NCBI GenBank assembly: GCA_016928715.1
Contig: JAFGKG010000219.1
Location: 29,671-93,670 of the forward strand
Source: Chloroflexia bacterium
Lineage (GTDB): Bacteria > Chloroflexota > Chloroflexia > DTKN01
DNA length: 64,000 bases
Reading direction: 5' to 3'
Positions 9,801 to 61,660 of this stretch are shown piece after piece (positions within the stretch are counted from its first letter, which is position 1; the number at the start of each line of letters is the position of its first letter). Below the pieces are notes generated by a model. The model had not been told where the DNA came from. It did not search any database and worked only from the letters and a program-made list of their open reading frames with translations. The translations under genes were made by a program, and so were the position numbers.

Positions 9801-10276
9801 GCCAACTCGCGGCCGTGATCGCCGACGCCGTGGACCAGGTAGAGGCCCTGGCCGCGATCAGGTCGGTTTCCCTCCAGGTTGTTGTTGCCCCGGACCTGCC
9901 CCTGGTCTGGGGCAACGGGCGGCGGTTGGGCCAGGTCATCACGAACCTGTTGGATAATGCCATCAAGTACAGCCCAAGCAGGAAAGAGGTCCTCTTTCGC
10001 GCCTATCCCCAGGGGGACATACTGCAGGTAGACGTCACCGACTATGGACCGGGCATTCCCAACGCGGACCTGCCCTATGTGTTTGAAAAGTTCTACACTA
10101 TCCGACAGAATAAACCAGGCGAAAAGGGAACTGGTTTGGGACTCTCCATCGCCCGCTCTATTATCCTGGCTCACGGGGGCAAAATTTGGGTTAAAAGCAA
10201 AGAAGGAGAAGGTTCCACCTTCTCCTTCAGTCTTTTATGTCGGGATATGCCGGCTCAGACGTCCGACAAGCTATGA
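6878..10276 (+). CDS. Cytoplasmic multi-GAF/PAS sensor histidine kinase with an unassigned N-terminal domain
   Basis: Three GAF-like segments (LCVPLV...LGILDL; GVSL...IGAVIL; ILVPLL...LGVLTV), PAS, H-box SHDLRSPL, N-box [11 protein letters not shown]-box GTGLGLSI; RBS GGAGG. Confidence 0.9.
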
Positions 10277-14789: not shown

Positions 14790-17700
14790 CTATTCTCTTT
14801 CGATACCAGAGAGGTTGATCCCCTCCAGCCCAATCAGGGGCCGAGTTTGTTGCCCCGCGTTGTCAATATCCACTGCCGCCTCATCGTCGCCATAGATCTC
14901 GACCGACAATCCCAAGCTTTGCAGTTCCTTGACCAACACCTTAAAGGCCTCAGGGATACCCACCTCCTGAATGGGCTCCCCTTTGACAATCGCCTCATAG
15001 GTCTTGCTGCGGCCATTGATATCATCGGACTTGACCGTGAGCATTTCTTGCAGCGTATAAGCCGCCCCATAAGCCTCCAGCGCCCAGACCTCCATCTCGC
15101 CAAAGCGCTGCCCACCGAACTGGGCTTTGCCGCCCAGGGGCTGCTGGGTGACCAGGGAATAGGGGCCGGTAGAGCGGGCGTGGATTTTGTCCTCCACCAG
15201 GTGGGCCAGCTTCATCATATAGATATAGCCCACCGCGACAGGATTTTCAAAGGGCTCTCCGGTGCGGCCATCGTAGAGCGTGATCTTGCCATTATCGGGG
15301 AGGCCGGCTTTTACCAGCATATCTTCGATATCCCTTTCCTCGGCGCCGTCAAAGACGGGGGTGGCGACCTTGATCCCCAATCTGAGTGCGGCCCAGCCGA
15401 GATGGGTCTCGAGTAGCTGCCCAATGTTCATGCGCGAGGGCACGCCCAGCGGGTTGAGGACAATATCCACCGGCGTACCATCGGGCAGAAAGGGCATATC
15501 TTCAACGGGCAGGATACGCGAGATGACGCCCTTGTTGCCGTGCCGCCCGGCCATCTTGTCCCCGGCGGCGATTTTACGCCGCTGGGCAATGAGGACCCGC
15601 ACCATCGTGTGCACGCCAACCGAGAGTTCGTCGCCCTGGTCGCGGGAAAATATCTTGACATCAATCACCCGGCCGGAGACCCCATGGGGAACCCGCAGGG
15701 AAGAATCCCGCACCTCGCGGGCCTTTTCTCCAAAGATCGCCCGCAGCAGGCGCTCCTCGGCGGTCAGGTCCGTCTCTCCCTTGGGCGTGATCTTGCCCAC
15801 CAGGATCTCACCCGGCCCGACCTCGGCCCCGATATAAACCACGCCGGCTTCGTCCAGATTGGCGAGCAGGTCCTGACCTACATTGGGGATATCCCGGGTA
15901 ATCTCCTCCGGGCCCAACTTGGTATCGCGGGCCTCACATTCGTACTTTTCGATGTGCACGGAGGTATAGACGTCCTCCCGTTCCAGCCGCTCGCTGATGA
16001 GGATGGCGTCCTCAAAGTTACCTCCCTCCCAGGGCAAAAAGGCCACCAGGACGTTGCGCCCCAAGGCCAGTTCTCCATTGTCGGTAGAAGGCCCATCGGC
16101 GATGACCTGCCCGGCGACCACCCCATCCCCCTTTTGCACAATCGGCCGCTGGTGAATGCAGGTATCCTGATTGGAACGACGGAATCCAATCAGCGGATAG
16201 GTGCGCTCAAAACCATCCTCTTCCCGCACCAGGATTTCGTCGGCCACCGCCCGCAGCACCTCGCCGTCAGCGGCGGCAATAGCCACCAGGCCGGAATCAC
16301 GGGCCGCCTGGTACTCCATGCCCGTACCGACCAGGGGCGATTCCGGCACCAGCAGGGGCACGGCCTGTCGCTGCATGTTGGAACCCATCAGGGCACGGTT
16401 GGCATCGTCATGTTCCAGGAAGGGGATCAGGGCCGTGGATACCGAAACAACCTGTTTGGGCGACACATCCATAAAGTCGATTTGGTCGGCGCGCTCCAGG
16501 GTGGGCCGGGAACCTCGCCGGGCCGTGACCCGCTCGTCGATGAAGCGATTGCGCTCGTCCAGGCGGGCATTGGCTTGGGCAATGGTATACCGATCGTCCT
16601 CGTCGGCGGAGAGATAGGTGATCTCTTGGCTTACCGTCGGATGCACCGCAATGCGTTTCAAGGGCAGCGCCGCGATCCGCTTGCTCAGGGCCTCGTCAAT
16701 TTCTGTGCCGGCTGCCGCGACCAACTCGCCGCTCTGCGGATCGGTTACGTCCTGGCGCAACAGATGCCCTTCCAGGAGTACCGCCCGGTTCTCCAACTCG
16801 CGGACGACCCGGCGATAGGGGGTCTCGATAAAACCAAGCGGGTTAACCCGCCCATAGGTCGCCAGGCTGCCAATCAAGCCGATGTTGGGGCCCTCGGGGG
16901 TTTCTACCGGACAAATACGCCCATAGTGTGAATGGTGCACATCTCGGACCTCAAAGCCGGCCCGATCACGGGAAAGGCCACCCGGCCCCAGCGCCGAAAG
17001 GCGCCGCTTGTGGGTCAACTCGGCCAAGGGGTTGGTCTGGTCCATGAACTGGGAAAGCTGGCTGCCACCAAAGAATTCTCGAATCGCCGCCACCAGCGGT
17101 CGAATGTTGATCAGACGATTGGGCATCACTGTTTCGGGCTCGCTCATGGTCATCCGCTCACGGATGATGCGCTCTATGCGCAGCAAGCCAATACGGAATT
17201 GGTTCTGCACGAGCTCGCCCACCGTGCGGACCCGGCGATTGCCCAGATGGTCAATATCATCCGGTTCGCCCCAACCATTGTTCAGACGGATCAGCTCTTC
17301 AACGATGCGAATAATGTCCGCCGTAACCAGGGTGCGCTGGTTCAAGGGCGGCGGATCCTGATGCCCACTGATCACGCGCACGTAAAAGCGGCTGCAAAGA
17401 TGCTCAAACTCGTATTCCGCAGGACCAATCCAAAGGTCCTGGCCCTCTTGACACATCTCGCAGCCCGGGCAGATGTACCAGCCGCACTCGGGGCACATCT
17501 CGACTTTGCTCGAGTCAATCAAATGGGCCTCATCCCGCCAGCAGGTCACGGATTCCCCACTCAGGGCCAGTTCTACCACCTCTTGGGTCTGGGCCCGCAG
17601 TGCTTTTATCTCGTTCTCTTCCAGGCTGAGCCCCCCCCTGGCCCGCTCCAACCACCAGACGCGCTGCTGCACCATGTCATCAACAAGTTCTTGATCCGCC

Positions 17701-18710
17701 CCATGCTCGCGGGCCTGCTGCCAAAGATCCAGCCAGGCGCGCCGGCGCTCCAAACCCTCTCGGACCTCCGGCTCCAGCGTGCGATTCTCCCACAAGCGGC
17801 GGTTCAATTTGTAGCGTCCGACCTTGGCCAGGTTGTAACGCCGCTCATCAAAGAGCATGCTCTCCAGTAAATTGCGCGCATTGTCCAAAGTAGGGGGATC
17901 GCCGGGACGAAGCCGCCGATAGATTTCCAGCAATGCCTCCGGCTGGTCCGTACTGGGATCCCGGCCCAGCGTGGCCTCGATAAAGGAACGATCCGTCGAG
18001 GTATCCACATGTTGGAAAAGAGCCCGAAGCTCGTCATCCGTATCGTAGCCCAACGCTCGCAATAGAATGGTCACCGGGATTTTGCGCCGCCGATCCATCT
18101 TGACCGAGAGAACATTGCGGCGATTGGTCTCGAAATCCAGCCAGGCTCCCCGCGCCGGAATCAACTTGGCTGCGTACAGGGGCAAACCATCGCGGGTCTC
18201 GTCCTTGAACTGAAAATAGCAACCCGGGGAACGGACCAACTGGGAGACCACCACCCGCTCAGCCCCGTTGATGATAAAGGTAGCCCGGTTGGTCATCCAG
18301 GGAAAATCACCACAAAAAATCTCTTGCTCCCGGACCTCACCCGACTCTTTGATGTGGAGTTGGACTTGAACGCGCAGAGGACGAGCGTAGGTGGCATCCC
18401 GTTCCCGGGCCTCGCTCTCACTGTAACGGGGCTCCCCAAAGTAATAGTGCAAAAAGTACAGCTCCATCTTGCGCCCGGTGAAATCCTGTACCGGCGAGAT
18501 CTCGGTAAAAATCTGCTGCAGGCCCTCCTCGACAAACCAATGGAAGGACTCCAACTGGGTCTGGATCAGGTGGGGCATGGGTAAAATTTCAGGGATCCGC
18601 GAGAAGGAATGCCGCTCGGGTCGCTTGACCTCTCGAATGGGGTGCTGTGGACCCGGTAAAGAATCCTCTACCGTCACAGACTGTTCAGGAGTACGAACAA
18701 CAACGGACAT
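14790..18710 (-). CDS. rpoB: DNA-directed RNA polymerase subunit beta
   Basis: [63 protein letters not shown]. Confidence 0.99.
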
Positions 18711-47177: not shown

Positions 47178-48233
47178 TCAGGAACTCCGCCCCAGCAGCG
47201 ACTCGACCAATCGCTCCAACAAGCTACGGGCCGGGCCCTCGGGGAGCTGCGCCAGGAACTCGAGGGATTGGCGATGATAACAAGCGGCTTGTTGTTGGAC
47301 ATAGTCGCGGCTTCCCGCATCCTCCATCATCTGCAGTATAGCGGCAATGTCCTCCTCGGACAGGGGCTCCCTCCCCCTGAGGCGCTGGACCAGAAATTCC
47401 CGCGCCGCGCCGGTGGCCTGACCCAGGGCGTGTACCAGCGGCAAGCCTAATTTGCGCCCATGGAGGTCCGCCGCCGCCGGCTTGCCGGTCAGCACCGGGT
47501 TCCCCCAGACCCCCAGCCAATCGTCCTGCACCTGGAAGGCCAAGCCCAAGGCCAGGCCAAAACGACGCCAGGTCTCCAGGGACGCCGCCGTAGCCCCACC
47601 GATCAGCGCACCCAGTTGCACCGCGGCGACCAAGAGCGCCCCCGTCTTGGCCGAGATCATGGCCCCATAAGAAGTTTCGTCGACATCCAAGCGGCCCTCA
47701 AAACTTAGGTCCAGATATTGTCCCTCGCAGATACGCAGTATGGCCTGATCAAAAACTTCCAGCGCCTCCAAGAATGCCTCGTTCGCCAGTCCGCTGGAGC
47801 GCAGGCGGAGCAGGGCCGTACGGGCCAGGACAAAAAGGCCATCTCCGACGTTGATGGCCTGGGGAATTCCCCATAGATTCCACACGGTTGGCCGACCCCG
47901 TCGCAGGGGACTGTTGTCCTCAATATCATCGTGAATCAGGGTAAAATTGTGCAGCAATTCCACCGCGGCCGCTGCCGGTAGAGCCGGTCGCCAAAGCCCT
48001 GAACTCACCTCGCAGGCCAACAGGCTCAACAAGGGGCGCAGTCGCTTGCCCGTATTTTCCCGCACGGGCCGCAGTGCTGCATCCCGCCAACCCAAATGAT
48101 ACTCGATCATCCCATAAAAGGGCTGCAGCCTTGCCGGCGGATCCGCGGGGAGGCAAAGCCCCATCTCGGATTCAATCGCCGCAAGTCTTTCCTGGAATTG
48201 CTCCGACCCTCGCTGTCGCTTCATCAGCTCCAC
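47178..48233 (-). CDS. Polyprenyl diphosphate synthase (IdsA/GGPP synthase-like)
   Basis: GKRLRP, FARM FTLIHDDIED, RRGRPT, GQYLD, KTG, FQVQDD. Confidence 0.92.
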   Translation of the reverse strand: MELMKRQRGSEQFQERLAAIESEMGLCLPADPPARLQPFYGMIEYHLGWRDAALRPVRENTGKRLRPLLSLLACEVSSGLWRPALPAAAAVELLHNFTLIHDDIEDNSPLRRGRPTVWNLWGIPQAINVGDGLFVLARTALLRLRSSGLANEAFLEALEVFDQAILRICEGQYLDLSFEGRLDVDETSYGAMISAKTGALLVAAVQLGALIGGATAASLETWRRFGLALGLAFQVQDDWLGVWGNPVLTGKPAAADLHGRKLGLPLVHALGQATGAAREFLVQRLRGREPLSEEDIAAILQMMEDAGSRDYVQQQAACYHRQSLEFLAQLPEGPARSLLERLVESLLGRSS

Positions 48234-48333
48234 CTTCCCCGGCGCTTGTGCCGGGAAGATTCACTCGAACCATTACAAAGCATATCACAGGGCTCTATCC
48301 CTGTCAAAATAGCCTGTCCGCCCCCCCCCAAAA

Positions 48334-48705
48334 TTTTTCACACTTTTATTTCTGAGGGTTTTCCACTTTTCCACAAGGGGGCCTTCTAGATAAATCTATC
48401 GGCGCCCTAGTCATCCTGACCCCCTACATCTAGTGGTTCGGATCGTTTCAAGCCCTAATTAGCGGTAGGCCTTTTTGTGGATAACTGCCCCCCTGTAGTG
48501 GAAAAGTGCCCCCGTTTGTGGATAATTTGACGCAAAGCCGGAAGACCCGGGCCCAATCATTGTAATAAAGATAAATTTCTCCACCATGGCCTCACCAGGA
48601 CAAATGGGGGAAAAGGGCATCTAAAAGCCCTTTTTTTGTGTTTTATCCCCAATCAACCGCCCTACTACTGTATACTATTAATTAATATTAACGAGTATTA
48701 ACATG
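48334..48705. other. Putative chromosomal replication origin (oriC)
   Basis: Perfect DnaA boxes TGTGGATAA at 48476 and 48517; TTTTTCACA 48334, TTTTCCACA 48367; one-mismatch boxes at 48359, 48497, 48643; then CGCCC-TACTACTGTATACTATTAATTAATATTAA. Confidence 0.75.
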
Positions 48706-48816
48706 TGGACTCACACACCTCGTATAAGGGGTGTGAGTTACTTGAAACTTGGCGTAAAGTGTGCTACATTAGGGTATCCGGACAATACGCTCCAACTGAC
48801 TGGAGGGTGTAGCCAA

Positions 48817-50205
48817 GTGACTGAAGTGATTAGCGGAGGCTATATCGTAAAAACAAGCGGACCAGCCCAAAGGGCTGGGCTACAGGCCGGTGATCGCCTG
48901 CTCAAGGCGGCCAGGGTACCACTCCGTGATATCATTGATTTCTGGTTCTATGCTGATGGGCCGCAGGTGGAGATCGAGATAGGGCGCCAGGGCCGGCGGA
49001 TGACCCTGTGGCTTGAACGCGATGCCGGGGAATCCTGGGGACTGGACTTTGATCAGCCGCTGTTCGATGGTCTGCGCCGTTGTAGCAATCACTGCCTGTT
49101 CTGCTTTTTGGACCAGCTTCCTCCTGGTTGGCGCAGGAGCCTGTACTTGCGCGACGATGACTATCGGCTTTCCTTTCTATACGGCAATTTTGTGACCTTG
49201 ACCAACCTGCGGCCGGCCGATTGGGATCGTTTGGACGAACAGCATCTGAGTCCGCTCTATGTTTCGGTGCATGCCACGGATCCGGTCTTGCGGCGGATCC
49301 TCTTGGGGCGCTCCGATTTGCCCGATATTCGAGCGCAACTGCTGCGCTTGGAGCAATTGGCTATTGAGGTCCACGCCCAGATCGTTCTGTGTCCAGGCAT
49401 TAACGATGGGGAGTATTTACAACAGACGCTGTCCGATCTGGAGGAGAGGTCGCGGAGCGTTGTCTCGGTTGCCCTGGTGCCGGTGGGGCTGACCCGTTTT
49501 CGCAACGAACGATCGGTGGTCCTGCCTGGAGAGACGGCCCATTTGCGATCCTACACCCCGACCGAGGCCCGGGAGATGCTGTCTTGGGCAGGTCCCCTGC
49601 AGCGATCCTTTCGTCAGCGCTGGGGCCGGAACTTGCTCTATTTGTCCGACGAGTTCTACCTTTTGGCCGGCCGGTCCGTGCCGGCAGCCCGCTTTTACGA
49701 TGACTTTCCTCAACTGGAGAATGGGGTGGGTTTGGTGCGCCTGCTGCGGGAGGATTGGTTTCGGGCCCGCCGACGCTTGCCCGCGAAATTGCCCCGACCG
49801 CTGCGGATGAGCCTGGTCTGCGGCACCATGATCGCGCCGATGCTGCGCGAGTTTGCCCGGGAATGCCAGGAGCGGACAGAGCTTTTGACCATCGAGGTAT
49901 TGGCCCTGGAGAATCAAACCTTTGGCCCGCTAGTGACTGTCTCAGGTCTGTTGACCGGGGAATGTCTGCGGGCCGGCCTGCGGGGGAGGACTCTGGGGGA
50001 CGTTGTGGTCATGCCACGGGTGGCCTTTGAACAGTCTGGCCGCTGTACCCTGGATGAAGTGTCGTTGTCCGATCTCGCCGCAGAACTGCAGTGCCCCCTT
50101 CTTTTGGCGGACCAGATGTCAGAGGTGGTGGAGGCCCTTAACCAAATCGACCGAGGGAACCCGCCCAGCCCATTGTTTACTGATCTCCGATATCCCACTT
50201 TCTAA
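48817..50205 (+). CDS. DUF512 family PDZ/radical-SAM-like Fe-S protein
   Basis: N-terminal PDZ-like; CSNHCLFCF, DDDYRLSFLYGNFVTLTN, SDEFY, QLENGVG; GGAGG RBS before GTG. Confidence 0.88.
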   Translation: MTEVISGGYIVKTSGPAQRAGLQAGDRLLKAARVPLRDIIDFWFYADGPQVEIEIGRQGRRMTLWLERDAGESWGLDFDQPLFDGLRRCSNHCLFCFLDQLPPGWRRSLYLRDDDYRLSFLYGNFVTLTNLRPADWDRLDEQHLSPLYVSVHATDPVLRRILLGRSDLPDIRAQLLRLEQLAIEVHAQIVLCPGINDGEYLQQTLSDLEERSRSVVSVALVPVGLTRFRNERSVVLPGETAHLRSYTPTEAREMLSWAGPLQRSFRQRWGRNLLYLSDEFYLLAGRSVPAARFYDDFPQLENGVGLVRLLREDWFRARRRLPAKLPRPLRMSLVCGTMIAPMLREFARECQERTELLTIEVLALENQTFGPLVTVSGLLTGECLRAGLRGRTLGDVVVMPRVAFEQSGRCTLDEVSLSDLAAELQCPLLLADQMSEVVEALNQIDRGNPPSPLFTDLRYPTF

Positions 50206-50308: not shown

Positions 50309-51262
50309 CTACTCCTCAGACTTTTTTCGTCGCCAGCGCACGATCAGCCAGATCGGCAGGCCAAAGACGAGGCCCAGCAGGAGCAGCAGGGGCAGTACGA
50401 TGGTGACAAAGTTGATCAGTACGACCAACAAGTTCTGCAGGATCTCGACCAGGTTGCTGGCGGCCCGGCGAAAGATTTTTCCTGGGTCAAAGCCCTCCTC
50501 TACGACAGGCTGCTCGATGTCGGGATCGCGGGGGGTCAGCTCCACGCTGATGGTGGCCATGGCGGACATTTGCTCCAGGTACTGCATGCGGCCCTGGATC
50601 TGCTCGATCTGGCTGCGGATATTGGTGAGCTGTTCGTGGATGGCCAGGATGGCGTTGGCCTTTTCCTCGGCATTGCCCTCGCTCTCTCGAACCTCGGTGA
50701 GTAGGGCCAGCAGTTCAATCTCGGTGGCCTGTAGGGTCTTGAGTCGGGATTGCAGGTCGACGTACTGGTCGGTGACGTCCTCGCCGCTGACGTCCTCGCG
50801 GGTGACCTTCCAGGCCAGGCCGCGGAGCTGCGAGAGGGCCTCGTCAAAGCGGTCTGCCGGCACCCGCAGGGTGATCTGGGCCGCCAGGCGGTCGGTGTGG
50901 GTGCGGTAGGTACTGGATTGGACGATATAGCCCTCCATTCCTCGGACCATGTCCAATACCTGCGGCAGGGTCTGTTCGACGTCCTCGACGAGGATCGAGA
51001 TGGAACCGGTCTGGATGACCATGCGCTCGATGGTGACGCCGGCTTGGGCCTCGATGTCGCTCACGGTTCCACGGCTGCCGAGCTCATTTTTGTCATAGAC
51101 AGCGTCGGGGGCGTGCTCGGATTCGCGGGGGGCGTTCACCGCCTCGTCGTATCCGGCTGCTCCATAGCTTTCCTGCGGATTGGGCCGGACCAGGGCGACG
51201 ATGACGACGATGGCGACGATGGCGAGGAGTGTCCACAGGGCGTACTTGGCCAACTTTTTCAT
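50309..51262 (-). CDS. DUF4349 domain-containing protein
   Basis: RMVIQTGSI, TLRVPA..FD, EDVTDQYVDL, coiled coil, C-terminal TM. Confidence 0.88.
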   Translation of the reverse strand: MKKLAKYALWTLLAIVAIVVIVALVRPNPQESYGAAGYDEAVNAPRESEHAPDAVYDKNELGSRGTVSDIEAQAGVTIERMVIQTGSISILVEDVEQTLPQVLDMVRGMEGYIVQSSTYRTHTDRLAAQITLRVPADRFDEALSQLRGLAWKVTREDVSGEDVTDQYVDLQSRLKTLQATEIELLALLTEVRESEGNAEEKANAILAIHEQLTNIRSQIEQIQGRMQYLEQMSAMATISVELTPRDPDIEQPVVEEGFDPGKIFRRAASNLVEILQNLLVVLINFVTIVLPLLLLLGLVFGLPIWLIVRWRRKKSEE

Positions 51263-51356
51263 TTGAAACCTCCTTCAAGGGCGATCGATTGTTTATCCCC
51301 GCTTTTGGGGGCTCTGTTAGATAGACGCTCCTCGCCGCAAAAAGATTTCACTTAGA

Positions 51357-53255
51357 TCACACCTCGCGGAATTCACCTTCGACGGTGCGGTCGTCCGCTG
51401 GTGGTGTTTCGCCACTACCCGCCGGCGCCGGCCCGGCCTCGGCCTCAGGTCCGCTCTCATAGACGCTCTGTCCGATCTTTTGGGCTGACTGGGACAGCTC
51501 CTGCATGGCGACGCTGATTTGCTCGGTGCTGTCGCCTTCCAGGGCGCTGCGCACGGCGGCAATTTTCCCCTCCACCTCGCTGCGAATGTCGGCCGGCACC
51601 TTGTCCCCCAGGTCGGCTAACGTGCGCTCGATCTGGTAGGCTAGGTTGTCGGCCTGGTTGCGCGTTTCGACCTCCTGCTTGTGGCGCAGGTCCTCCTCGG
51701 CGTGTTTTTCGGCATCCTGGACCATCTGGTCAATCTCGGTCTCGCTGAGGCCGCTGGATGCTTTGATGGTGATCTTTTGTTCCCGTCCGGTGGCCTTGTC
51801 CTTGGCTGAGACGTGCAGGATGCCGTCGGCGTCGATGTCAAAGGTGACCTCGATCTGGGGGATGCCCCGGGGGGCCGGCGGGATGCCGTCCAGGATGAAT
51901 TGACCCAGGGTCTTGTTGTTGGCGGCCATAGGCCTTTCGCCCTGCAGGACGTGGATCTCGACGCTGGGCTGATTCTCGGTGGCGGTGGAAAATATCTGGC
52001 TTTTGCGCACCGGGATGGTTGTGTTGCGGGGGATGATCGATGTCATTACGCCGCCCAGTGTTTCCACGCCCAGGGTCAGCGGGGTGACGTCCAAGAGCAG
52101 CACGTCCTTGACCTCGCCGCCCAGGACGCCGGCCTGGATGGCCGCGCCTACGGCGACCACTTCGTCGGGATTGATGCCCTTGTGAGGCTCTTTGCCAAAA
52201 TGGTCGCGCACGGTCTTTTGCACCAGGGGCATGCGTGTCTGCCCACCGACCAGGATAACCTCGTCGATCTGGCCGGTTTGCAGGTTGGCGTCGGACAGGG
52301 CCTGCTTGACCGGTCCCAGGCTGCGTTCGACCAGGTCGCCGACGAGCTGTTCCAGCTTGGCCCGGGTCAGCTTGATCTGCATGTGCTTGGGGCCGCTGGC
52401 GTCGGCGGTGATAAAGGGCAGGTTGATCTCGGTCTCGGCCAGGGTGGACAGTTCGATCTTGGCCTTTTCGCCGGCCTCTTTGAGCCGCTGCAGGGCCATG
52501 CGGTCCTGGGAGAGATCGATGCCGTGATCCCTTTTGAACTCTTGCACCAGCCAGTCGATGATGCGCTGGTCAAAGTCATCGCCGCCCAGGTGGGTGTCGC
52601 CATTGGTGGAGCGGACCTCGAACAGGCCCTCCCCGATTTCCAAGATTGAGATGTCAAAGGTGCCGCCGCCCAGGTCATAGACGGCAATGACCTCGCTCCC
52701 CTGCTTTTCCAGCCCATAGGCCAGGGAGGATGCGGTGGGTTCGTTGATGATGCGCAGCACTTCCAGGCCGGCGATGCGGCCGGCGTCCTTGGTCGCCTGG
52801 CGTTGGCTGTCGTTAAAGTAGGCCGGCACGGTAATGACCGCCTGTTTCACCTCTTCGCCCAGGTAGGATTCGGCGTCCTGCTTGAGTTTTTGCAGGATCA
52901 TGGCCGAAACCTGGGGGGGCGAGTATTCCTTTCCACCCATTACCACGCGCACGTCGCCGTTGGGCGCGGCGGTCATCTCGTAGGGGACGAGCTTGCAGTC
53001 GGCCTGTACGCTGGGGTCGTTGTATTTGCGGCCCATAAAGCGCTTGATCGAAAAGACCGTGTTCTCTGGGTTCGTGATGGCCTGGCGGCGAGCGATGCGC
53101 CCGACCATCCTTTCCCCTGTCTTGGGATTGACCGCCACGACGGAGGGGGTAAGCCGTTCTCCTTCGGCGTTTGTAATGACCACCGCTTCGTTGCCCTCCA
53201 TCACGGCGACGACCGAGTTGGTTGTTCCCAAGTCAATTCCAATTACTCTGGCCAT
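51357..53255 (-). CDS. dnaK: Chaperone DnaK
   Basis: [32 protein letters not shown]. Confidence 0.99.
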
Positions 53256-53305
53256 GGACGTTCCTCCTGACTGTCTTTTTTCCAGGGGCAGACAAGCGGC
53301 CCCGT

Positions 53306-53938
53306 TTACTCGGCAGTTGTTTCCAAAGGTTCTTTGTCGGGGGCTTTTCCCGGAGAGGTCATGGCCCGTCCGACCTTGACCATGGTGGGACGGAGCACCC
53401 GATCGTGTAGCTTGTAGCCTTTTTGCAATTCCTGTAGGACCTCTTGATCCCGTTCCAGATCGACCTCTTCAAAAAGGATCCCGTCGTGATAGTAGGGATC
53501 GAAGGTTTCCCCTATGGCTTGGATGACCTGCAGGCCGTGCTGCTGCAGGGTGGTCCGCAGACGATGGTGGATCAATTGAATGCCCTCGATCCAGGGGGTC
53601 TGGTCCTGTTGATTCTGCGGCAGCGATTCTATGGCTCGATCCAGGTCGTCCAGTACGGGCAGCAGGTGCCCGATGAGTTCGGCGTTGGCCTGGCGGACCA
53701 TAGTTTCCCGTTCCTGCTGTATGCGCTTTTTATAGTTGCGCAGTTCAGCGACGGTCCTCAGCCATTGGTCGTGGTACTCGGCGGCCTGGACATTCGCCTG
53801 CTCCAATTCCTGCCGTAGGATGTCCATTTCGTCCAGGGGTGCTTTTTGCTCCTCCGGCGATTCCGCCTCCGGTGCGGGGGATGTTGCTTCGGGCTCGTTT
53901 TCCGCAGGAGCGTCTCGTCGTTCTTTTTCCTTGGGCAT
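53306..53938 (-). CDS. grpE: Nucleotide exchange factor GrpE
   Basis: [35 protein letters not shown]; between hrcA and dnaK. Confidence 0.95.
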
Positions 53939-53970
53939 ATCTGCGCTTACCTCCTTGTACCTTGGGCCTT

Positions 53971-55011
53971 TTAGCCGGGCAGTTGTCCCAAAAGCTCGCT
54001 CATCAGGCGGGCGATAAAGTGTACCGAAGAGACAGATCGCGGATAGGGCATCCGGGTGGGCCCTAGGATGCCTAGGACTCCCTCCAGTCGGCCCTCCAAC
54101 CCATAGCGGGAGACGACCATGCTGTAGTTGCGCATCTCTTTGTGCCGGCTTTCCCCGCCAATGATGATCTGGACGCCGTTCTGCTGCAGTGCCCGGCCCA
54201 GCAACTCGGCCAGCAGCGTGGGTTGGTCCAATATCTCTAGGAATTCGCGGGTGCGTTCCACCGCGGCGAACTCGGGCTGGCTCAGGGCCTGAATGAGGCC
54301 GTCCCGAATGATGGGCTCGCACTCCCAGCGGTTCAGTTGCTCCATCGTGCCGACGACCAGGTCTCGCACCTGTCTTTCCAGGCGCGACCACTCCTCCGAT
54401 CCAAGGGAGGCAATCTGGGCCGCGGACTGTCCCTGCATCTGCTCGTTGAGCTTGTTGGCCATCTGGCTCAATTCGTCCTGGGTGATGCTTTCGTCCAGGG
54501 TGAGCATATGCTGGCGGATGGTGCCATCCCGTAGGATGACGACGAGCAGTACCCGCGTCTCATAGACCGAGAGCATCTCCAGGTGCTTGAAATGGATCTG
54601 CGGGGAGCGGGCCGGTGTGACCATGGCCGTGCTCTGGGAGAGACGGGCCAGGGCTGCCGCGGCCAGGCGGGACCATTCCTCCATGTCGGTGCGAACCTGG
54701 TAGAATTGGTGCCGGATCATGCGGCGATCGTCGGAGGACAGCGGCTGCCATTCCATCAACTGCTCCACAAAGTAGCGATAGCCGCTGTCGGTGGGGATGC
54801 GGCCGGCCGAGGTGTGTGGATGGGTCAGCAGCCCGATCTCTTCCAGAAAGGACAGCTCGTTACGCACCGTGGCCGAACTGACCCTCAGTCCGTATTTGCG
54901 CACCAGGGTTTCGGATGCCACCGGCGTGGCCGTTTTGACGTATTCCTGGATGACCAGGCGCAGAATCTGTTGTCGACGCTTGGTTAATTCAAAACGTTCT
55001 TGGGTTGCCAT
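53971..55011 (-). CDS. hrcA: Heat-inducible transcription repressor HrcA
   Basis: SSATVRNE, HTSAGRIPT..GYRYFV, LGPTRM.Y. Confidence 0.97.
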   Translation of the reverse strand: MATQERFELTKRRQQILRLVIQEYVKTATPVASETLVRKYGLRVSSATVRNELSFLEEIGLLTHPHTSAGRIPTDSGYRYFVEQLMEWQPLSSDDRRMIRHQFYQVRTDMEEWSRLAAAALARLSQSTAMVTPARSPQIHFKHLEMLSVYETRVLLVVILRDGTIRQHMLTLDESITQDELSQMANKLNEQMQGQSAAQIASLGSEEWSRLERQVRDLVVGTMEQLNRWECEPIIRDGLIQALSQPEFAAVERTREFLEILDQPTLLAELLGRALQQNGVQIIIGGESRHKEMRNYSMVVSRYGLEGRLEGVLGILGPTRMPYPRSVSSVHFIARLMSELLGQLPG

Positions 55012-55028
55012 ATCCTGGCTCCATACTT

Positions 55029-55055
55029 TTAGCACTCCAAATATCAGAGTGCTAA
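55029..55055. promoter_or_regulatory. CIRCE element (HrcA operator)
   Basis: Perfect TTAGCACTC-N9-GAGTGCTAA. Confidence 0.97.
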
Positions 55056-55068
55056 TCAGCCAGAAACC

Positions 55069-55097
55069 AGTTTAGCATGCCCAAGGGCCTTTGTCAA
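55069..55097 (-). promoter_or_regulatory. sigma70 promoter of hrcA-grpE-dnaK
   Basis: TTGACA-N17-TAAACT with TG extension, directly upstream of CIRCE. Confidence 0.8.
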
Positions 55098-55134
55098 GCC
55101 TTTTGGTGACCAGGTAGGGGAGGAGGGCGGATTT

Positions 55135-56319
55135 CTAATGAAACGTTAAGCTTGTGCCGAAAAAGCGTTCCAGACGGGTGCAGGCTTGGGCCAGTTCGCT
55201 CAGGTCGACGGCGCCATAGGAGAGGCGCAGGCAGCCCTCTCCGTAGGGGCCAAAGAGGCTGCCGGGGATGGTGACGACGTGGGCTTGCTGCAAGAGATCG
55301 AGGGCCAACTGGAACGAGTCCCTGCAGCCGGCCACCTGGACAAAGGCGAAAAAGCCGCCCCGGGCGGGTTGCCAGCTCAGGCCCGGGATCCGGGGCAGCC
55401 GCTCCAGCAGCAGTTGCCTCCTTTGCGCCAGGACGTCGCGGCGTTGGGCCAGGGCCGTGCTGGGCGCTTGCAGGGCGCCCAGGGCGGCTTTTTGGGCGAT
55501 CACGCTGGCGCAGATGACCATGGTGTCCTGCACCTTGAGCGCCTCTTGCACGAAATCGGCCGGGGCGACCAGAAAGCCAACGCGCCATCCGGTCATGCTG
55601 TAGGACTTGGAAAAACTGCTGATGGTAATGACCTGGTCGCGGATCTCGGGCCGGCTGGCAGGGCTGAAATGGCGGGCCTCCTCGTAGACAAAGTGCTGGT
55701 AGGTCTCGTCGGTGATGATGGCGATGCCGCGGCCAGCCAGTTCCTGGCAGAGGTCGTTTAGTTCCTGCGGGTCATAGACGGCCCCAGTGGGATTGTTAGG
55801 GGTGACCAGGACGATGGCCCGGGGTAGCGGGTTCAGGTAGGGTAGCAGTTCCCGCCGGCGCAATTGAAAACCATCGGATGGGTCCAGGGGGATCTCGACG
55901 GGGATGGCCCCGGCCAGGCACACGGCCATGTGGTGGTTAAAAAAGTAGGGAGCGGGCAGCAGGACCCGGTCGCCGGGGTCCAGCAGGGTCAAGAGGGCGG
56001 TCAGGAAGGCCTGGTTGGCCCCGGCGGTGATGAGGATCTCGCTGTTCGGGTCGGCGTGGATGCCGTTCTGCGCCCGTAGGGTCTCGCCGAGCTGCCGGCG
56101 CAGGGCCGGCAGCCCGGCGTCGGGGCTGTAGATGTGCGTTTCGTCCTCGTCCAGGGCCCGGCGGGCGGCGTCGATGGCCTGGGTCAGGGGCGGCAGATTG
56201 GGGATGGCCTGCCCCAGGTTGATGACGTGGGCGCCGGCCCGGCGCAGCGCTGTCGTGCGCAGCTTGATCTCGTCGATGAGCGCCGGGGTGAGTTGGCGGG
56301 TGCGGTCGGAGACATGCAT
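55135..56319 (-). CDS. PLP-dependent class I/II aminotransferase
   Basis: TAGANQA, TPNNPTG, DETY, SFSKSYSMTGWRVG. Confidence 0.93.
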   Translation of the reverse strand: MHVSDRTRQLTPALIDEIKLRTTALRRAGAHVINLGQAIPNLPPLTQAIDAARRALDEDETHIYSPDAGLPALRRQLGETLRAQNGIHADPNSEILITAGANQAFLTALLTLLDPGDRVLLPAPYFFNHHMAVCLAGAIPVEIPLDPSDGFQLRRRELLPYLNPLPRAIVLVTPNNPTGAVYDPQELNDLCQELAGRGIAIITDETYQHFVYEEARHFSPASRPEIRDQVITISSFSKSYSMTGWRVGFLVAPADFVQEALKVQDTMVICASVIAQKAALGALQAPSTALAQRRDVLAQRRQLLLERLPRIPGLSWQPARGGFFAFVQVAGCRDSFQLALDLLQQAHVVTIPGSLFGPYGEGCLRLSYGAVDLSELAQACTRLERFFGTSLTFH

Positions 56320-56323
56320 GGCT

Positions 56324-56716
56324 TTACCCTTGAGCTAACTCCTGAACCCGTTCCACCAGGGCCGGCGAGCCCGAGACAAAGATCTTGGTCCAATAGCCCG
56401 GATTGGCGTGGCCTTCGATCTCGTAATCTTGGCCGCGCAGCAAAAAATCGATTTGCCAGCCAAAGAATCCGTCCTGGACCTCGGCGTAGGCGCTTTCCCA
56501 GTTGCTGGGGGCAAAGGATACCGGATCATCCCATTCGCCGGCGTCGATGCCGTGCAGTACGTAGTACAGTTGGTTGGGTTGGCGGTCCAGCGCCTGGCAG
56601 ATTCGCTCGATGGCGCGCAAAAAGGCCTCGAGCCCGTTGCCCCGCTCGAATTCGATCTCCGCCTCCACCCGCTCTGGTGTGGAGGACGTGGGTGCTTCCT
56701 GGGCTGGTTCTCCCAT
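56324..56716 (-). CDS. Hypothetical protein
   Basis: 130-aa ORF fills the gap between hutU and the aminotransferase in the same orientation. Confidence 0.6.
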   Translation of the reverse strand: MGEPAQEAPTSSTPERVEAEIEFERGNGLEAFLRAIERICQALDRQPNQLYYVLHGIDAGEWDDPVSFAPSNWESAYAEVQDGFFGWQIDFLLRGQDYEIEGHANPGYWTKIFVSGSPALVERVQELAQG

Positions 56717-56734
56717 TTTATCAACCTTGGACGG

Positions 56735-58405
56735 TCAGCTTTTAACCGTATCGGGCAGCATAGGCACCTGGACCCCGCGATCCCTGGCTACATTGATGGC
56801 TTTCTCGTAGCCGGCGTCGGCGTGGCGGGCGACGCCCAGGCCGGGATCGTTGGTCAGTACGCGCTGAAGCTTGTCGTCGGCCTCGCGGCTGCCGTCGGCG
56901 ACGATGACCATGCCGGCATGCAGGGAATAGCCGATACCCACGCCGCCGCCGTGGTGGAACGAGACCCAGGTGGCCCCAGAGGCGGTGTTCAGCAGGGCGT
57001 TGAGCACGGGCCAGTCGGCGATGGCGTCCGAACCGTCGCGCATGCTCTCGGTCTCGCGATTGGGCGAGGCTACCGAGCCGGTGTCCAGATGGTCGCGGCC
57101 GATGACGATGGGCGCCTTGACCTTGCCGCTGCGGACTAGCTCGTTAAAGGCCAGGCCTGCCTTGGCCCGCTCGCCATAGCCCAGCCAGCAGATGCGGCAG
57201 GGCAGCCCCTGGAACTGGACCTTTTTCTGGGCCATGCGGATCCAGCGGGCTAGGGCCTCGTCTTGGGGAAAGAGTTGCAGGATGGTCTCGTCCGTGGCAT
57301 AGATGTCCTGAGGATCACCCGATAGGGCGGCCCAACGGAAGGGGCCTTTGCCCTCGCAAAAGAGCGGCCGGATAAAGGCGGGCACAAAGCCAGGATAGTC
57401 AAAGGCGTTCTCCACGCCGGCCTTGAGGGCCTGCCCGCGCAGGTTGTTGCCATAGTCAAATACCACGGCGCCCCGTTGCTGGAAGGCCAGCATGGCCCGG
57501 CAGTGCCGGGCCATCGAGTCCATAGCGCGGCGGATGTACTCATCGGGCTGTTCCTCCCGCAGGCGCAGGGCATCCTCATAGGGGAGTCCCTCGGGGACGT
57601 AGCCGCGCAGGGCGTCGTGGGCCGAGGTCTGGTCGGTGACGACATCGGGTGTGATGCCGCGGACGACCAGCTCGTCCAAGACCTCGGCGGCGTTGCCCAA
57701 CAGCCCGATTGATTTGGCCTGGCCCTGCTCGGTGGCTTCCTGCACCCAGGTCATGGCCTCTTCCAGGTCCTCGGTCATGATGTCCAGGTAGGCCGTGTCC
57801 AGGCGGCGCTGGATGCGCTGCCGGTCCACCTCGACGATGAGGGCGACGCCCTCGTTCATAGTGATGGCCAGGGGCTGCGCGCCGCCCATGCCGCCCAGGC
57901 CGGCGCTGAGGACCAGGCGGCCGCGCAGGGTGCCGCCAAAGTGCTGGCGGGCCAGTTCGGCCAGGGTCTCGTATGTGCCCTGGAGAATGCCCTGGGTGCC
58001 GATATAGATCCAGCTTCCGGCCGTCATCTGGCCGTACATGATCAGACCCTTGGCCTCCAGCTCCCAAAAGTGCTCCCAGTTGGCCCAGGCCGGCACCAGC
58101 ACCGAGTTGGCAATGAGCACCCGCGGGGCCTCGGGCGTCGTTTTAAAGACGCCGACCGGTTTGCCCGACTGGACGCAGAGCGTTTCGTCGTCCCCCAGTT
58201 CGCGCAGGCAGCGTACGATGGCGTCAAAGCAGTCCCAGTTGCGGGCCGCCTTGCCGGTGCCTCCGTAGACGATGAGCTGGTCGGGATCCTCGGCTACTTG
58301 GGGGTCGAGATTGTTCATGAGCATGCGCAGGGCGGCCTCTTGGGCCCAGCCCCGGCACGAGATTTTGCCCCCCCGGGGGGCGCGGACGACGCGTGGTCCG
58401 GACAT
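56735..58405 (-). CDS. hutU: Urocanate hydratase
   Basis: [60 protein letters not shown]. Confidence 0.98.
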
Positions 58406-58651
58406 GGTGACCTCCTTGTCTGATGGGATGATCCCTGGCGGGGATAAGGCCAGGTGCTTTTCCTAGGTCAATTATACCACATTTCTGGCGAACCGAGCGC
58501 TGTTGGGTAGCGGATGGCAAGACATTAGCGCGTTCGTGCGTTGGAACGTGGACACGTTGGCACATTGTCGCGCCAGGCCGGATGGACGGTTGAACGTTTG
58601 CTGCGGATGAAAGACAGGGGCGAGAAGAAATGGGAAGAACCTTTGATCTGG

Positions 58652-58680
58652 TTGACTTTTTGGCCTACTTGTCGTACAGT
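58652..58680 (+). promoter_or_regulatory. sigma70-type promoter ~320 nt upstream of the Pro/Thr-rich gene
   Basis: TTGACT-N17-TACAGT. Confidence 0.5.
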
Positions 58681-58832
58681 AGGGGGCGATTGGGAGGAAG
58701 AAAGGCTGCGCGGCTGTCCGCTGCTGCTGGACCGCCGCACCCGCCGGGTTATCCTGGTGCGGCGGAATCTAGCCATCTTGGCCAAGAATTACGGACGGCT
58801 GGAGTACTTTGCGGCGCTTGTTAAAAGACAAA

Positions 58833-58965
58833 GCCGAACGGCCCCGCCTGATCGAGATGGTGCCGGGTATGGCGACCTCTTTATCGGCGCGGTGGAGGTC
58901 GAGCCCTGAAACGCCAAGCCCCCGCCGCATGCGGCCGCGGGGGTAGAAATAGCAGAGGGCGGCCG
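58833..58965 (+). ncRNA. Candidate structured cis-regulatory RNA (riboswitch-like leader)
   Basis: Stems CCTG/CGGG around GAGA loop, GGC-GACCTC/GAGGTC-GA-GCC and CCCCCGC/GCGGGGG, with purine-rich junctions GCCGAA, GCCAA, GTAG, shortly before the RBS. Confidence 0.4.
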
Positions 58966-59002
58966 GCCGCCGCTCCGACGGACAATGGAAAGGTGGTGGG
59001 CG

Positions 59003-59866
59003 ATGAAATTGCGTAGGACGCTGCTGCCGTTGTTGGCGCTGTTGGGGCTGTTGATGGGGGGAGGGGGGCCGGCCCGGGCCGGCCAGATCCCGCCGACCAA
59101 GACGCCCTTTCCCACCGTGACCAAGACGCCCTTTCCCACCGTGACCAAGACGCCCTTTCCCACCGTGACCCCGGCGCCGCCCACGGCGCTGCCCACGGCC
59201 ATCGTGCTGCCCACCCCGCCGTCCACGGCCGCGCCCCCGCTGTCCACAGCCACGCCCCCGCCGCCCACAGCCGCATCAACGGCCGCCCCACCTCCCACCC
59301 GCCGGCCGGCGGCCACCGCTACGCCCACAGAGCCCGTCCCTCCCACCGCTGCGCCTACCTGCCCGCCCGCGACGGCCCTCCCGCCCAGCGCGCCGCCGGC
59401 CGCGCCCAGCGCCACTGCCACCGCCGTGCTTTCGCCCACGCGCACCCCCACGCCCACACGCACCCCCACGCCCACGCGCACCCCCACGCCCACGCCCCGG
59501 CCCACGGACACTGCCCCACCTACTGCCACGGACACCGCGCCGGTCCCGACCACCGCCGTGCCCTCACCCTCCCCGGCGCTGTCGCCCACGCCCCTGTCGA
59601 CGGTGGGCAGTGGGGATGGGGAAAATCGCCCCACACTGCCGCTGCTGCTGGCCGGCGCGGGGGCGCTGGGACTGCTGTTGGGTCTGGTACTGCTGCTGCG
59701 CCGCTCGCAGGGGCGGGTGGCGGCTGTGCCTCCGCTGGTTGTGGAAACCGCCGTGACGCCGGACGCAGTGCCGGAAGCCGCACTTGCCCCAGACATGGGC
59801 CGGCCCTACAGCCTGGATCGAGGGGAATTGCGCCGCCTGTGGCAGCGCTTTGCGCGGAGATTATAG
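59003..59866 (+). CDS. Secreted Pro/Thr-rich protein with C-terminal membrane anchor
   Basis: Signal peptide (ARA|G), long PT stalk, C-terminal TM followed by RR. Confidence 0.75.
   Translation: MKLRRTLLPLLALLGLLMGGGGPARAGQIPPTKTPFPTVTKTPFPTVTKTPFPTVTPAPPTALPTAIVLPTPPSTAAPPLSTATPPPPTAASTAAPPPTRRPAATATPTEPVPPTAAPTCPPATALPPSAPPAAPSATATAVLSPTRTPTPTRTPTPTRTPTPTPRPTDTAPPTATDTAPVPTTAVPSPSPALSPTPLSTVGSGDGENRPTLPLLLAGAGALGLLLGLVLLLRRSQGRVAAVPPLVVETAVTPDAVPEAALAPDMGRPYSLDRGELRRLWQRFARRL
59096..59170 (+). repeat. 24-bp tandem repeat x3 (TKTPFPTV)
   Basis: GACCAAGACGCCCTTTCCCACCGT repeated three times exactly. Confidence 0.9.
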
Positions 59867-59873
59867 GGAGAAC

Positions 59874-61538
59874 TCAATCGAGCCGGTACTGCTCCACCAA
59901 TTGGCCCAACTCTCCGGCCAGCCGGTGCAGTTCGCCCGCCGACCGCTCGGACTGGCCGGCGCTGTCCAGCGTCTGTTTGGTTACCTGCTGCATACTCTGC
60001 ATGGCCTGCGCTAGCAGGTCCATCCCGTTCAATTGCTGCTCCGCAGCAACGACGATCTGGGCTGCCGATTCGGTCGAATTGACCACGCTTTCCGCTAGAT
60101 CCTCGATGGTCCGGCCGGCCTCCCCGGCCAGGCGCACGCCCAGGTCCGCGCCCTCCATACCCTCCTCTGTGGCCAGCACGGCCGTGCCGATGCCGCCCTG
60201 GATGTCGAGCAGGATCTGCTGCACCTGCTCCGTCGCCTGTTGGGACTGCTCGGCCAGGGAGCGCACCTCCTCCGCTACGACGGCAAAGCCCCGGCCGGCC
60301 GCGCCGGCCCGGGCCGCCTCCACCGCCGCGTTGAGGGCCAGCATGTTGGATTGGGCGGCGATCTCGTTGACCGTGCTGATGATCCGCTCGATGGCCTGGG
60401 CCTGTTCAGAGAGTGCCCGGACGGTCTGCTCGATCGTCTCGACCCGGGTGCGGACGTCCTGGATCCCGGCCGTGGCCTCGCTGACCGCCTGGAGGCCGCC
60501 CTGCGAGACGTCGGCCGTGCGCCGGGCCATCCCGGCCACTTGCTGGGCCCGTTGGGTGGACCGCTCGGCCACCGCCCGTACCTGCTCGATCGTCGTAGAG
60601 GCCTGCTGGATGGCCGCGGACTGCTCCATGGCCCCGCTGGCCTGCTGGCTGGCGGTGGTCAGTATCTCGGCCGCGGCAGAGGCCAGGTTGCCCGCGGTGT
60701 GGCGTAGTCGGGCCGTCATGCGCTGCAGGCTGGCGATCGTTTCGTTCAGGCGCTGCCCCAGGATGGCCAGAGGGTCGTCGCCGTCCGACTGCGCGACCTC
60801 CACCCGGGCGGCCAGGTTGCCCTGGGCCACCTTGTCCATGCAGGCGACGCACGCTTGCACAACCCCCTGCAGTTGCTCGGCCCGCTCCGCCAAGACCGTC
60901 CGCGTTTTGTCCAAAAGTTGGTTGCTCTCCCGCAGTTCCTGTTCCCGCTGCCGGGTCTGGGTAAATCCCTGACGATTGCTGCGCACGGCGTGGCGCAGCA
61001 GCAGGCCTGTGAGTAGGAGGATGGGAATCGCCATGATCAGGTCCACCACATCGGCCTGGGGCGCTGTGGGAACGACAAAGCCGGTGACCTCGGCGGTGTA
61101 CGCCGCCAGCACTCCCAGGACCGCCAGTCCCGTCACGCCGATCGCAGCGCCCTCCCCGATGAGCAGCCCGGCCAGGGCAATCAGAAAGGGGTAGATCAGC
61201 ATCGAGTTCTCACCGCTGAGGCCGGAGAAGAGGACGCTCCAGGCGCTAATGACCCCCCAGAGCAGTAGGATGAGCAGGAAGGCCGCCAGGCGGGTGTGGC
61301 CGCGCCGGGCTAAAAATAGGAACCAGACGCTCAAGGCGGTCATCAGCAGGCCGCTGAGCACGGTAAAGGCTTCGTCGCCATTATCGGGCCAACCGTACAG
61401 GAACAGGAGCAGCAGCGACAGCGCTCCGGCAATGGCGGTAAAGACGATCAGGGTGGTATGCAGCAGCCGTGCGGCCCGCGTCTTGTCCTCGTCGGCAAAG
61501 GTGGGGGCGGTAAACAGATCTCGCAGCCAGGTTCCCAT
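59874..61538 (-). CDS. Methyl-accepting chemotaxis protein with multi-TM input domain
   Basis: IAAQSNMLALNAAVEAARAG..GRGFAVVAEEVRSLAE; HAMP-like segment; ~6 N-terminal TMs. Confidence 0.92.
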   Translation of the reverse strand: MGTWLRDLFTAPTFADEDKTRAARLLHTTLIVFTAIAGALSLLLLFLYGWPDNGDEAFTVLSGLLMTALSVWFLFLARRGHTRLAAFLLILLLWGVISAWSVLFSGLSGENSMLIYPFLIALAGLLIGEGAAIGVTGLAVLGVLAAYTAEVTGFVVPTAPQADVVDLIMAIPILLLTGLLLRHAVRSNRQGFTQTRQREQELRESNQLLDKTRTVLAERAEQLQGVVQACVACMDKVAQGNLAARVEVAQSDGDDPLAILGQRLNETIASLQRMTARLRHTAGNLASAAAEILTTASQQASGAMEQSAAIQQASTTIEQVRAVAERSTQRAQQVAGMARRTADVSQGGLQAVSEATAGIQDVRTRVETIEQTVRALSEQAQAIERIISTVNEIAAQSNMLALNAAVEAARAGAAGRGFAVVAEEVRSLAEQSQQATEQVQQILLDIQGGIGTAVLATEEGMEGADLGVRLAGEAGRTIEDLAESVVNSTESAAQIVVAAEQQLNGMDLLAQAMQSMQQVTKQTLDSAGQSERSAGELHRLAGELGQLVEQYRLD

Positions 61539-61660
61539 GGGCACTCCTTACGTGCTCGGCCTACCATACTTTTGGGCAATCGGTGGCCTTTAGAAATGTC
61601 GAATCCTACCAAAACATAGTACCATAGTCGCCAGCCCAATGCAAGCCTTTTCCAGAACCG

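Follow-up and report, generated by a model that had tools for sequence, protein, structure and literature searches.

A probable chromosomal replication origin lying apart from dnaA in a family of uncultured Chloroflexota

The window analysed here is the whole 64-kb stretch G000:C64:29671-93670, in which a window coordinate equals the contig coordinate minus 29670. It belongs to a draft Chloroflexota assembly (G000; 226 contigs, 3.54 Mb, 63.7% G+C) with a marker-gene completeness of 88.9% and a contamination of 5%. Within it, a polyprenyl synthetase gene and a gene encoding a PDZ/radical-SAM-like/DUF512 protein diverge from an intergenic gap of ~580 nt, and the candidate origin, 48325-48705, lies inside this gap. 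The features are collected in Table 1. The original prediction had described a probable oriC, uncoupled from dnaA, in the most AT-rich intergenic region, flanked by a polyprenyl synthase and DUF512. Both neighbors were recovered by our scan of open reading frames against protein families, and the 370-nt stretch from 48331 is indeed the most AT-rich of the window, with a GC content of 0.438 compared to 0.637 for the genome. This distinction does not extend to the assembly, where at least seven stretches elsewhere exceed it in AT content.

The DUF512 gene probably starts at GTG 48817 rather than at ATG 48703, the latter being located within the AT-rich run. The DUF512 proteins of relatives align from residues 1–16 of the 462-aa form that begins at the GTG, and GGAGGG sits just upstream of this codon. 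Since the relatives align only from GTG 48817, the AT-rich run is most likely non-coding. A promoter-like site is predicted for each of the two genes. The one assigned to the polyprenyl synthetase gene falls just beyond the left border of the origin, in an area where TTGTCAA and CATATCACA stretches recur in most family genomes in the alignment, and the one assigned to the DUF512 gene lies to the right of the unwinding element. The two sites flank the conserved core on both sides without overlapping it. An Rfam scan of 47900-49100 with E values up to 1 returned no matches, and a known RNA was rejected on this basis as the cause of the conservation described below.

Table 1. Features of the intergenic region and its flanking genes (window coordinates)
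Feature	Position	Strand	Basis
Polyprenyl synthetase gene, left flank	47178..48233	-	ORF family scan
Promoter-like site of the polyprenyl synthetase gene, TTGACA-17-TATGCT, TG before the second hexamer	48279..48307	-	consensus scan
Left conserved block, AAAATTTTTCACACTTTT here, AAAATTGTATACACTTTT in 8 relatives	48330..48347	+	9-genome alignment
Distal tandem boxes TTTTCCACT + TTTTCCACA, pointing to the unwinding end	48359..48375	+	box scan
Central array, three co-oriented boxes TGTGGATAA, AGTGGAAAA, TGTGGATAA	48476..48525	-	box scan
Weak box TTCTCCACC, 2 mismatches, partly conserved only	48577..48585	+	box scan + alignment
Terminator-like hairpin with T run, inside the origin	48608..48637	+	prediction
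Proximal box pair, TTATCCCCA (1 mismatch) overlapping CAATCAACC (4 mismatches)	48643..48658	+	box scan
10-nt spacer ending C-rich, ATCAACCGCC, from the strong proximal box to the first trio	48652..48661	+	sequence
Three DnaA-trios, top CTA CTA CTG, bottom 3'-GAT GAT GAC-5'	48662..48670	-	sequence + register of Table S1 in PMC8287927
AT-rich DNA unwinding element (predicted)	48671..48705	.	nearest-neighbour energy
Promoter-like site of the DUF512 gene, TTGAAA-17-TACATT, right of the unwinding element	48742..48770	+	consensus scan
PDZ/radical-SAM-like/DUF512 gene, right flank	48817..50205	+	ORF family scan + relatives' alignment

DnaA boxes were scored against the consensus TTATCCACA, and each cluster was given the sum of (3 minus mismatches) over its boxes. 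Where about seven boxes, two of them perfect, had been predicted, we find nine within 372 nt that have at most two mismatches, whereas the assembly-wide density would predict 0.6. Both perfect boxes (TGTGGATAA at 48476 and 48517, minus strand) are present, 41 nt apart, and they represent two of only 15 perfect boxes in the whole assembly. Boxes with one mismatch occur on the plus strand at 48367 (TTTTCCACA) and 48643 (TTATCCCCA), and those with two mismatches at 48334, 48359, 48385, 48497, and 48577. The resulting cluster score of 15 is the highest in the 3.54-Mb assembly, the runners-up scoring 8. Over the whole 64 kb there are 16 boxes with at most one mismatch compared to a shuffle mean of 5.6, and none of 100 shuffles reaches 16.

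The boxes are ordered. The three starts of the central array are spaced 21 and 20 nt, or roughly two helical turns, and the array has no second copy in the assembly, giving a single match when up to 3 mismatches are allowed. At the distal tandem boxes, TCCAC-N-TTTCCAC is invariant in all nine genomes of the family. The left conserved block contains a weak box, TTTTTCACA, at 48334, and another Chloroflexota genome (G027) reads TTATACACT at the matching position, two mismatches from a box; the block is probably a degenerate DnaA box. We had also considered the two border TGTATAC sites as sites of an extra factor, but the alignment of the left block with the 2-mismatch box of G027 makes a degenerate box likelier. 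The predicted hairpin, whose GGGC/GCCC is retained in six of the nine family genomes, separates the central array from the proximal boxes. Analysis of its covariation in all nine genomes gave a consensus of 3 pairs only and zero compensatory changes.

The right-hand end of the element carries the unwinding module, which in the window lines up as TTATCCCCA ATCAACCG CC CTACTACTG; the end quoted in the original prediction, TTATCCCCA-ATCAACCGCCC-TACTACTGTATACTATTAATTAATATTAA, was located at 48643-48692. The published search rule for such modules (PMC8287927, section 13) calls for a box (≤2 mismatches), a spacer (0–16 nt), and three or more 3'-NAN-5' trios, with spacer lengths peaking at 10–13. In the window, the box faces the trios in the TTATCCACA orientation, a spacer of 10 nt follows, and the trios number exactly three, the published minimum, after which the triplet ATA ends the run. 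The second box of the pair, CAATCAACC at 48650-48658, has 4 mismatches, as counted by eye, and is within the limit for the optional second box (≤4). All nine family genomes have a box at the proximal position.

Adjoining the trios is the 30-mer with the lowest duplex stability in the whole 3.54-Mb assembly, 48671-48700, which has a nearest-neighbour energy of -27.9 kcal/mol and 87% A+T. Within the 590-nt stretch, the 30-mer of lowest stability likewise begins in or just after the trio block in each of the nine family genomes. The trios are the first 9 nt of a block, CTACkACTGTrTACkAT, that is also present in all nine, although the trio sequence itself is not constant. Four of the nine genomes pass the rule of three or more consecutive 3'-NAN-5' trios (CTACTACTG), and in the other five trio 2 is CGA (3'-GCT-5'; CTACGACTG), against the middle-adenine rule. 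Because the trio sequence varies within the family, our confidence in a trio-type opening is reduced, and we regard opening through the trios as in Bacillus subtilis as a reasonably probable prediction.

The module resembles that of B. subtilis closely. In Table S1 of PMC8287927, the B. subtilis module is given in the 3'-to-5' direction as AATAGGTGT TTAGGTGT CCGG GATGAT..., and its top strand, TTATCCACA AATCCACA GGCC CTACTA..., agrees with the window in both order and orientation. The original prediction of a B. subtilis-type module therefore stands as to order and orientation, while its TAC/TAG reading of the trios was one base off, the register of that table giving CTA-CTA-CTG. As in B. subtilis oriC incC, a strong box is followed by a weak box, a short G/C-rich gap, trios that start with 3'-GAT GAT, and AT-rich DNA (PMC8287927). 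On this comparison, the proximal pair corresponds to DnaA-box 6 and 7 of B. subtilis, and the spacers, 10 nt here and 12 nt there, both lie in the published 10–13 peak (PMC8287927). Distal boxes occur in both, and B. subtilis needs its own (PMC6669920). The two differ in the number of trios, which is 3 in the window and 9 in B. subtilis (PMC8287927), in the non-adenine middle base of trio 2 in five of the nine family genomes, and in that the element here does not lie between dnaA and dnaN and has a predicted function. Modules of this kind are widely predicted, in 85% of 2070 origins (PMC8287927). The five Chloroflexi in Table S1 of that work have weak predictions, with scores of 4–7 versus 25 for B. 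subtilis; among them, Thermomicrobium roseum scores 4 with 3 trios.

The family comparison comprises G000 and eight other genomes (G001–G008), the latter in three other genera, in an alignment of ~590 nt. The conservation in relatives that had been anticipated is borne out, as the element is present in all eight, with identical blocks at identical spacings throughout the alignment and an exact match to the 50-nt three-box pattern in nine of nine genomes. The flanking genes are another matter. To the left is a polyprenyl synthetase gene in G000, G001, G003, and G004, a GNAT-domain gene in G002 and G005, and a Kelch-repeat gene in G006. To the right is DUF512 in G000, G002, G005, and G007, desulfoferrodoxin in G001 and G004, a histidine kinase in G006, an NHL-repeat gene that converges on the element in G003, and a gene of unassigned family, also converging, in G008. 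The DUF512 gene was therefore dropped as a conserved origin neighbor, being the right flank in just four of nine family genomes.

Since the flanking genes vary while the element stays, the element is not a regulatory region tied to a single conserved gene. These data bear on the possibility that the locus is a DnaA-controlled divergent promoter region for the polyprenyl synthetase and DUF512 genes at which no replication starts. The position between divergent genes, with promoter-like sites predicted on either side, would fit such a role, and clusters of boxes upstream of genes do exist in this assembly, at dnaA and at a gene for a beta-CASP nuclease on contig C70. However, the predicted promoters lie beyond the conserved core, the core is retained in nine of nine genomes as the flanks change on both sides, with the right gene converging on it in two, and the element is also where the skew minimum and the weakest 30-mer are located. 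We consider a promoter region very improbable.

The cumulative G-C curve of the 100-kb contig C64 declines from ~26 kb to its global minimum at contig position 78391 and thereafter climbs to the contig end. This minimum is window position 48721, 16 nt past the AT-rich run and close to the ~48.5 kb at which it had been predicted. The V it forms has a depth of 600 and is the deepest on the 59 contigs ≥20 kb in length; skew is noisy, and the next V, on another contig, has a depth of 466. The sign of the skew tracks the side of the element and not the strand of the genes, which were called with our own ORF/GC3 heuristic. To the left of the element, the pooled skew is negative on both strands, at -0.037 for plus-strand (4 of 18 positive) and -0.059 for minus-strand genes (2 of 17 positive); to the right it is positive, at +0.074 for plus-strand (3 of 3 positive) and +0.035 for minus-strand genes (8 of 11 positive). 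As G000 is a draft, skew can be assessed at the scale of contigs only and not as a whole-genome curve.

A second family genome allows the same comparison with dnaA on one contig. The 293-kb contig of G001 carries dnaA at 96.4 kb and the element at 146.9–147.3 kb, and its skew minimum falls at 149.9 kb, which places the element <3 kb from the minimum and 50 kb from dnaA. In this genome the minus-strand genes on the left pool to +0.008. In both G000 and G001 the V fades ~50–75 kb from the element. Skew is near zero in G000:C64 1-26000 and in G001:C1 at <95 kb and >220 kb. Rearrangements near the origin, a mosaic assembly, or a weak mutational skew could each account for a V confined in this way.

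With respect to the forks that would leave such an origin, rpoB (14790-18710) and rpoC (10271-14728) are both on the minus strand, that is, co-directional with the leftward fork, as had been stated in the original prediction. To the right, in 50309-61544, minus-strand genes predominate (11 of the 14 called, dnaK and hrcA among them) and would be head-on to the rightward fork.

The element lies outside the canonical dnaA-oriC-dnaN arrangement. A full-length dnaA gene was found at C208:16752-18107 (530 bits against a TIGR00362 cut-off of 344) and dnaN on C91; neither is on C64 within the 78 kb to the left or the 22 kb to the right of the element. Among the 45 open reading frames of the window that were scanned, there is no member of the gyrB or gidA families, in keeping with the absence of dnaA, dnaN, gyrB, and gidA from the 64 kb noted before. 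The region upstream of dnaA is one of the score-8 places in the assembly, with five boxes, one of them perfect, against the score of 15 for the element. In this gap (L001 1059-1484 = G000:C208:16310-16735), the perfect box, TTGTCCACA, and three 2-mismatch boxes share the same orientation, and a similar box pair occurs upstream of dnaA in G001. These boxes are most simply read as sites for autoregulation of dnaA. A switch from minus to plus skew at dnaA was looked for and is found neither on C208 nor on the 293-kb contig of G001.

The E. coli datA and DARS sites are clusters of DnaA boxes located away from dnaA that are not known to lie at a skew switch or to have a trio or unwinding module. 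The element could be a site of this type that titrates or recycles DnaA, the true origin being located by dnaA on C208 or in unassembled DNA. Like the E. coli sites, it is a box cluster that is not adjacent to dnaA, and the region upstream of dnaA has boxes of its own. The draft is incomplete, with ~11% of the genome absent, so that a better origin site could sit in unassembled sequence. In addition, the skew of one more distant genome (G025, below) fits dnaA slightly better than the array. Unlike datA and DARS, however, the element has an unwinding module and a skew switch. The dnaA cluster is weaker and C208 and the G001 contig are devoid of the switch, the trio module is joined to the weakest duplex of the assembly, the array has its single match (at up to 3 mismatches) here, and the same module holds the dnaA-adjacent position in other Chloroflexota. 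On balance, a datA/DARS-like site appears improbable.

This last point comes from a search for the exact three-box pattern in one genome per species, which matched 83 public stretches, all but three titled Chloroflexota. The matches span Anaerolineae, Chloroflexia, Ardenticatenaceae, Promineifilaceae, Caldilineae, and Dehalococcoidia, and the three others are titled Sphingomonadaceae, Clostridia, and Scatosoma. DNA was available for 80 loci, with at least 1500 nt of left flank for 72 and enough right flank for 76. In 19 of the 72, dnaA reads toward the array and ends ≤600 nt upstream of it. Downstream of the array, a box, a spacer of 0–16 nt, and CTACTA occur in 42 of the 76 loci, with a spacer of 12 nt in 38. 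The same module search gave 0 of 76 on the reverse complement and none in the upstream stretch. The loci bearing the module include 27 without dnaA beside the array and 12 with it.

Array and module directly follow dnaA in the class-level relatives G009, G022 (contig C3), G027, and G037, as well as at loci L096 and L137. L096 reads TTCTCCACA AATCCACA GCCC CTACTA, which is nearly the B. subtilis sequence. In these dnaA-adjacent origins, the array has the same box spacing as in the window and begins 36–300 nt past the dnaA stop codon, and the box pair, C-rich gap, CTACTA, and AT-rich run follow 165–312 nt after the array, as they do here. In the window, an opposite-strand polyprenyl synthetase gene occupies the place of dnaA, which is on another contig. 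The occurrence of the same array and module directly after dnaA in other Chloroflexota shows the element to be the homologue of that origin, separated from dnaA in this family.

Skew was compared at three further genomes, of which G012 and G043 are class-level relatives as well. In G012, the 200–590 kb stretch reaches its skew minimum at 320.2 kb, near the biggest box cluster (7 boxes, with the module; 323.2 kb) and away from dnaA at 0.1 kb. In G043, the skew of a 10.4-Mb contig, sampled coarsely, changes from minus to plus in the interval 5.72–6.24 Mb, with the array at 5.885 Mb and dnaA at 4.16 Mb. In G025, which is of the Chloroflexus type, the array with its module (G025:C3 ~275.9 kb) is at a local skew maximum and dnaA (G025:C5 ~427 kb) at a small local minimum. 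Extension of the origin claim to Chloroflexus-type genomes is thus unsupported by the skew of G025. A second cluster in G012, with 4 boxes (L017 3016-3163, G012:C1 ~431.5 kb), comes directly after a DUF512 gene; it is off the skew minimum and ~108 kb from the cluster there, and may either mark a former origin position or neighbor the gene by chance.

Arrays are also seen beside parA-like genes without the unwinding module, in G017, G011, and G022 (contig C32). In these cases (L202, G017:C1 ~92.4 kb; L203, G011:C1 ~135.3 kb; L208, G022:C32 ~78.8 kb) the array is upstream of the parA-like gene, the start of whose product has a ParA-type Walker A motif as read by eye. The dnaA-adjacent arrays of bacteria in the same order do carry the module. 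The parA-adjacent arrays may belong to a DnaA-controlled par operon or to a second replicon. Given these module-less arrays and the three matches outside Chloroflexota, we rejected the three-box array alone as a marker of origins.

These observations raise the question of whether the element belongs to a second replicon or an integrated element instead of the main chromosome, a reading for which the parA-adjacent arrays of related genomes and the two large contigs of G012 could be cited. However, rpoB, rpoC, dnaK, hrcA, uvrC, and a pyruvate kinase gene are all located on contig C64, the 45 open reading frames scanned in the window include no member of a parA, rep, or integrase family, and the element is homologous to dnaA-adjacent origins. 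We view an origin outside the main chromosome as very improbable.

The box cluster, the module, the skew, and the conservation together support the proposal of an oriC uncoupled from dnaA, and we estimate a probability of about 0.87 that 48325-48705 is the chromosomal replication origin of this Chloroflexota genome. Binding of DnaA, the site of opening, and firing are predicted from the sequence as follows. DnaA, encoded on another contig, would bind the tandem boxes at the distal end, the three phased boxes of the central array, and the strong and weak boxes of the proximal pair. From the proximal pair, a DnaA-ATP oligomer would extend along the bottom strand over 3'-GAT GAT GAC-5' and open the adjoining AT-rich run, 48671-48705, where the helicase would be loaded. 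Two forks would then depart, one each way.

In E. coli, oriC is flanked by gidA and mioC and uses 13-mers, IHF/Fis sites, and many GATC sites. It shares with the element a cluster of DnaA boxes with an adjacent unwinding element, located apart from dnaA (PMC8287927). Unlike E. coli oriC, the element has one GATC only, and its unwinding end looks B. subtilis-type. An origin away from dnaA is an arrangement already in print, for E. coli (PMC8287927) and for T. roseum (PMC2615216). In the latter, a Chloroflexi species in which dnaN, dnaA, gyrA, gyrB, spo0J, and gidA are dispersed, GC skew had to be used to locate the origin; this is the same dispersed situation as here, described in a passage that gives no box or trio architecture (PMC2615216). 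The paper on Chloroflexus aurantiacus likewise states that the replication genes do not cluster. A literature search on oriC, DnaA box, and GC skew in Chloroflexi listed no paper with a description of the present architecture in Chloroflexota.

A well-supported origin for an uncultured Chloroflexota family would serve to orient draft assemblies, to estimate growth rates from read depth, and to analyze strand bias. Prediction of the origin by proximity to dnaA would fail in this family. Moreover, the variation between CTA and CGA at the second trio of an otherwise invariant block offers a ready-made natural test of the middle-adenine rule. A broader and unlikely scenario is that a single Chloroflexota blueprint, consisting of the phased three-box array and the B. 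subtilis-like module, has been split from dnaA many times with its layout intact, and that the block CTACkACTGTrTACkAT has been frozen in this family. If so, the lack of the middle adenine from trio 2 in most members would imply a deviant single-strand recognition by the DnaA of the family or, alternatively, an extra origin-binding factor that reads the TGTATAC core.

Finally, two clusters from the second-best tier of the assembly were considered as candidates and rejected. The one at C98:2533 is within an open reading frame and probably arose by chance, and the one at C70:14246 sits upstream of the beta-CASP gene. The latter stretch (L247 5201-5681, G000:C70:14200-14680) is non-coding, carries a perfect DnaA box, and precedes a gene for a 1079-aa beta-CASP/metallo-beta-lactamase protein. 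It also contains the direct repeat AAATTGTAyACAsCCTGG twice within 62 nt. These repeats account for two of the five ATTGTAyACA sites of the assembly, and the motif is similar to the left border block of the family's origin.
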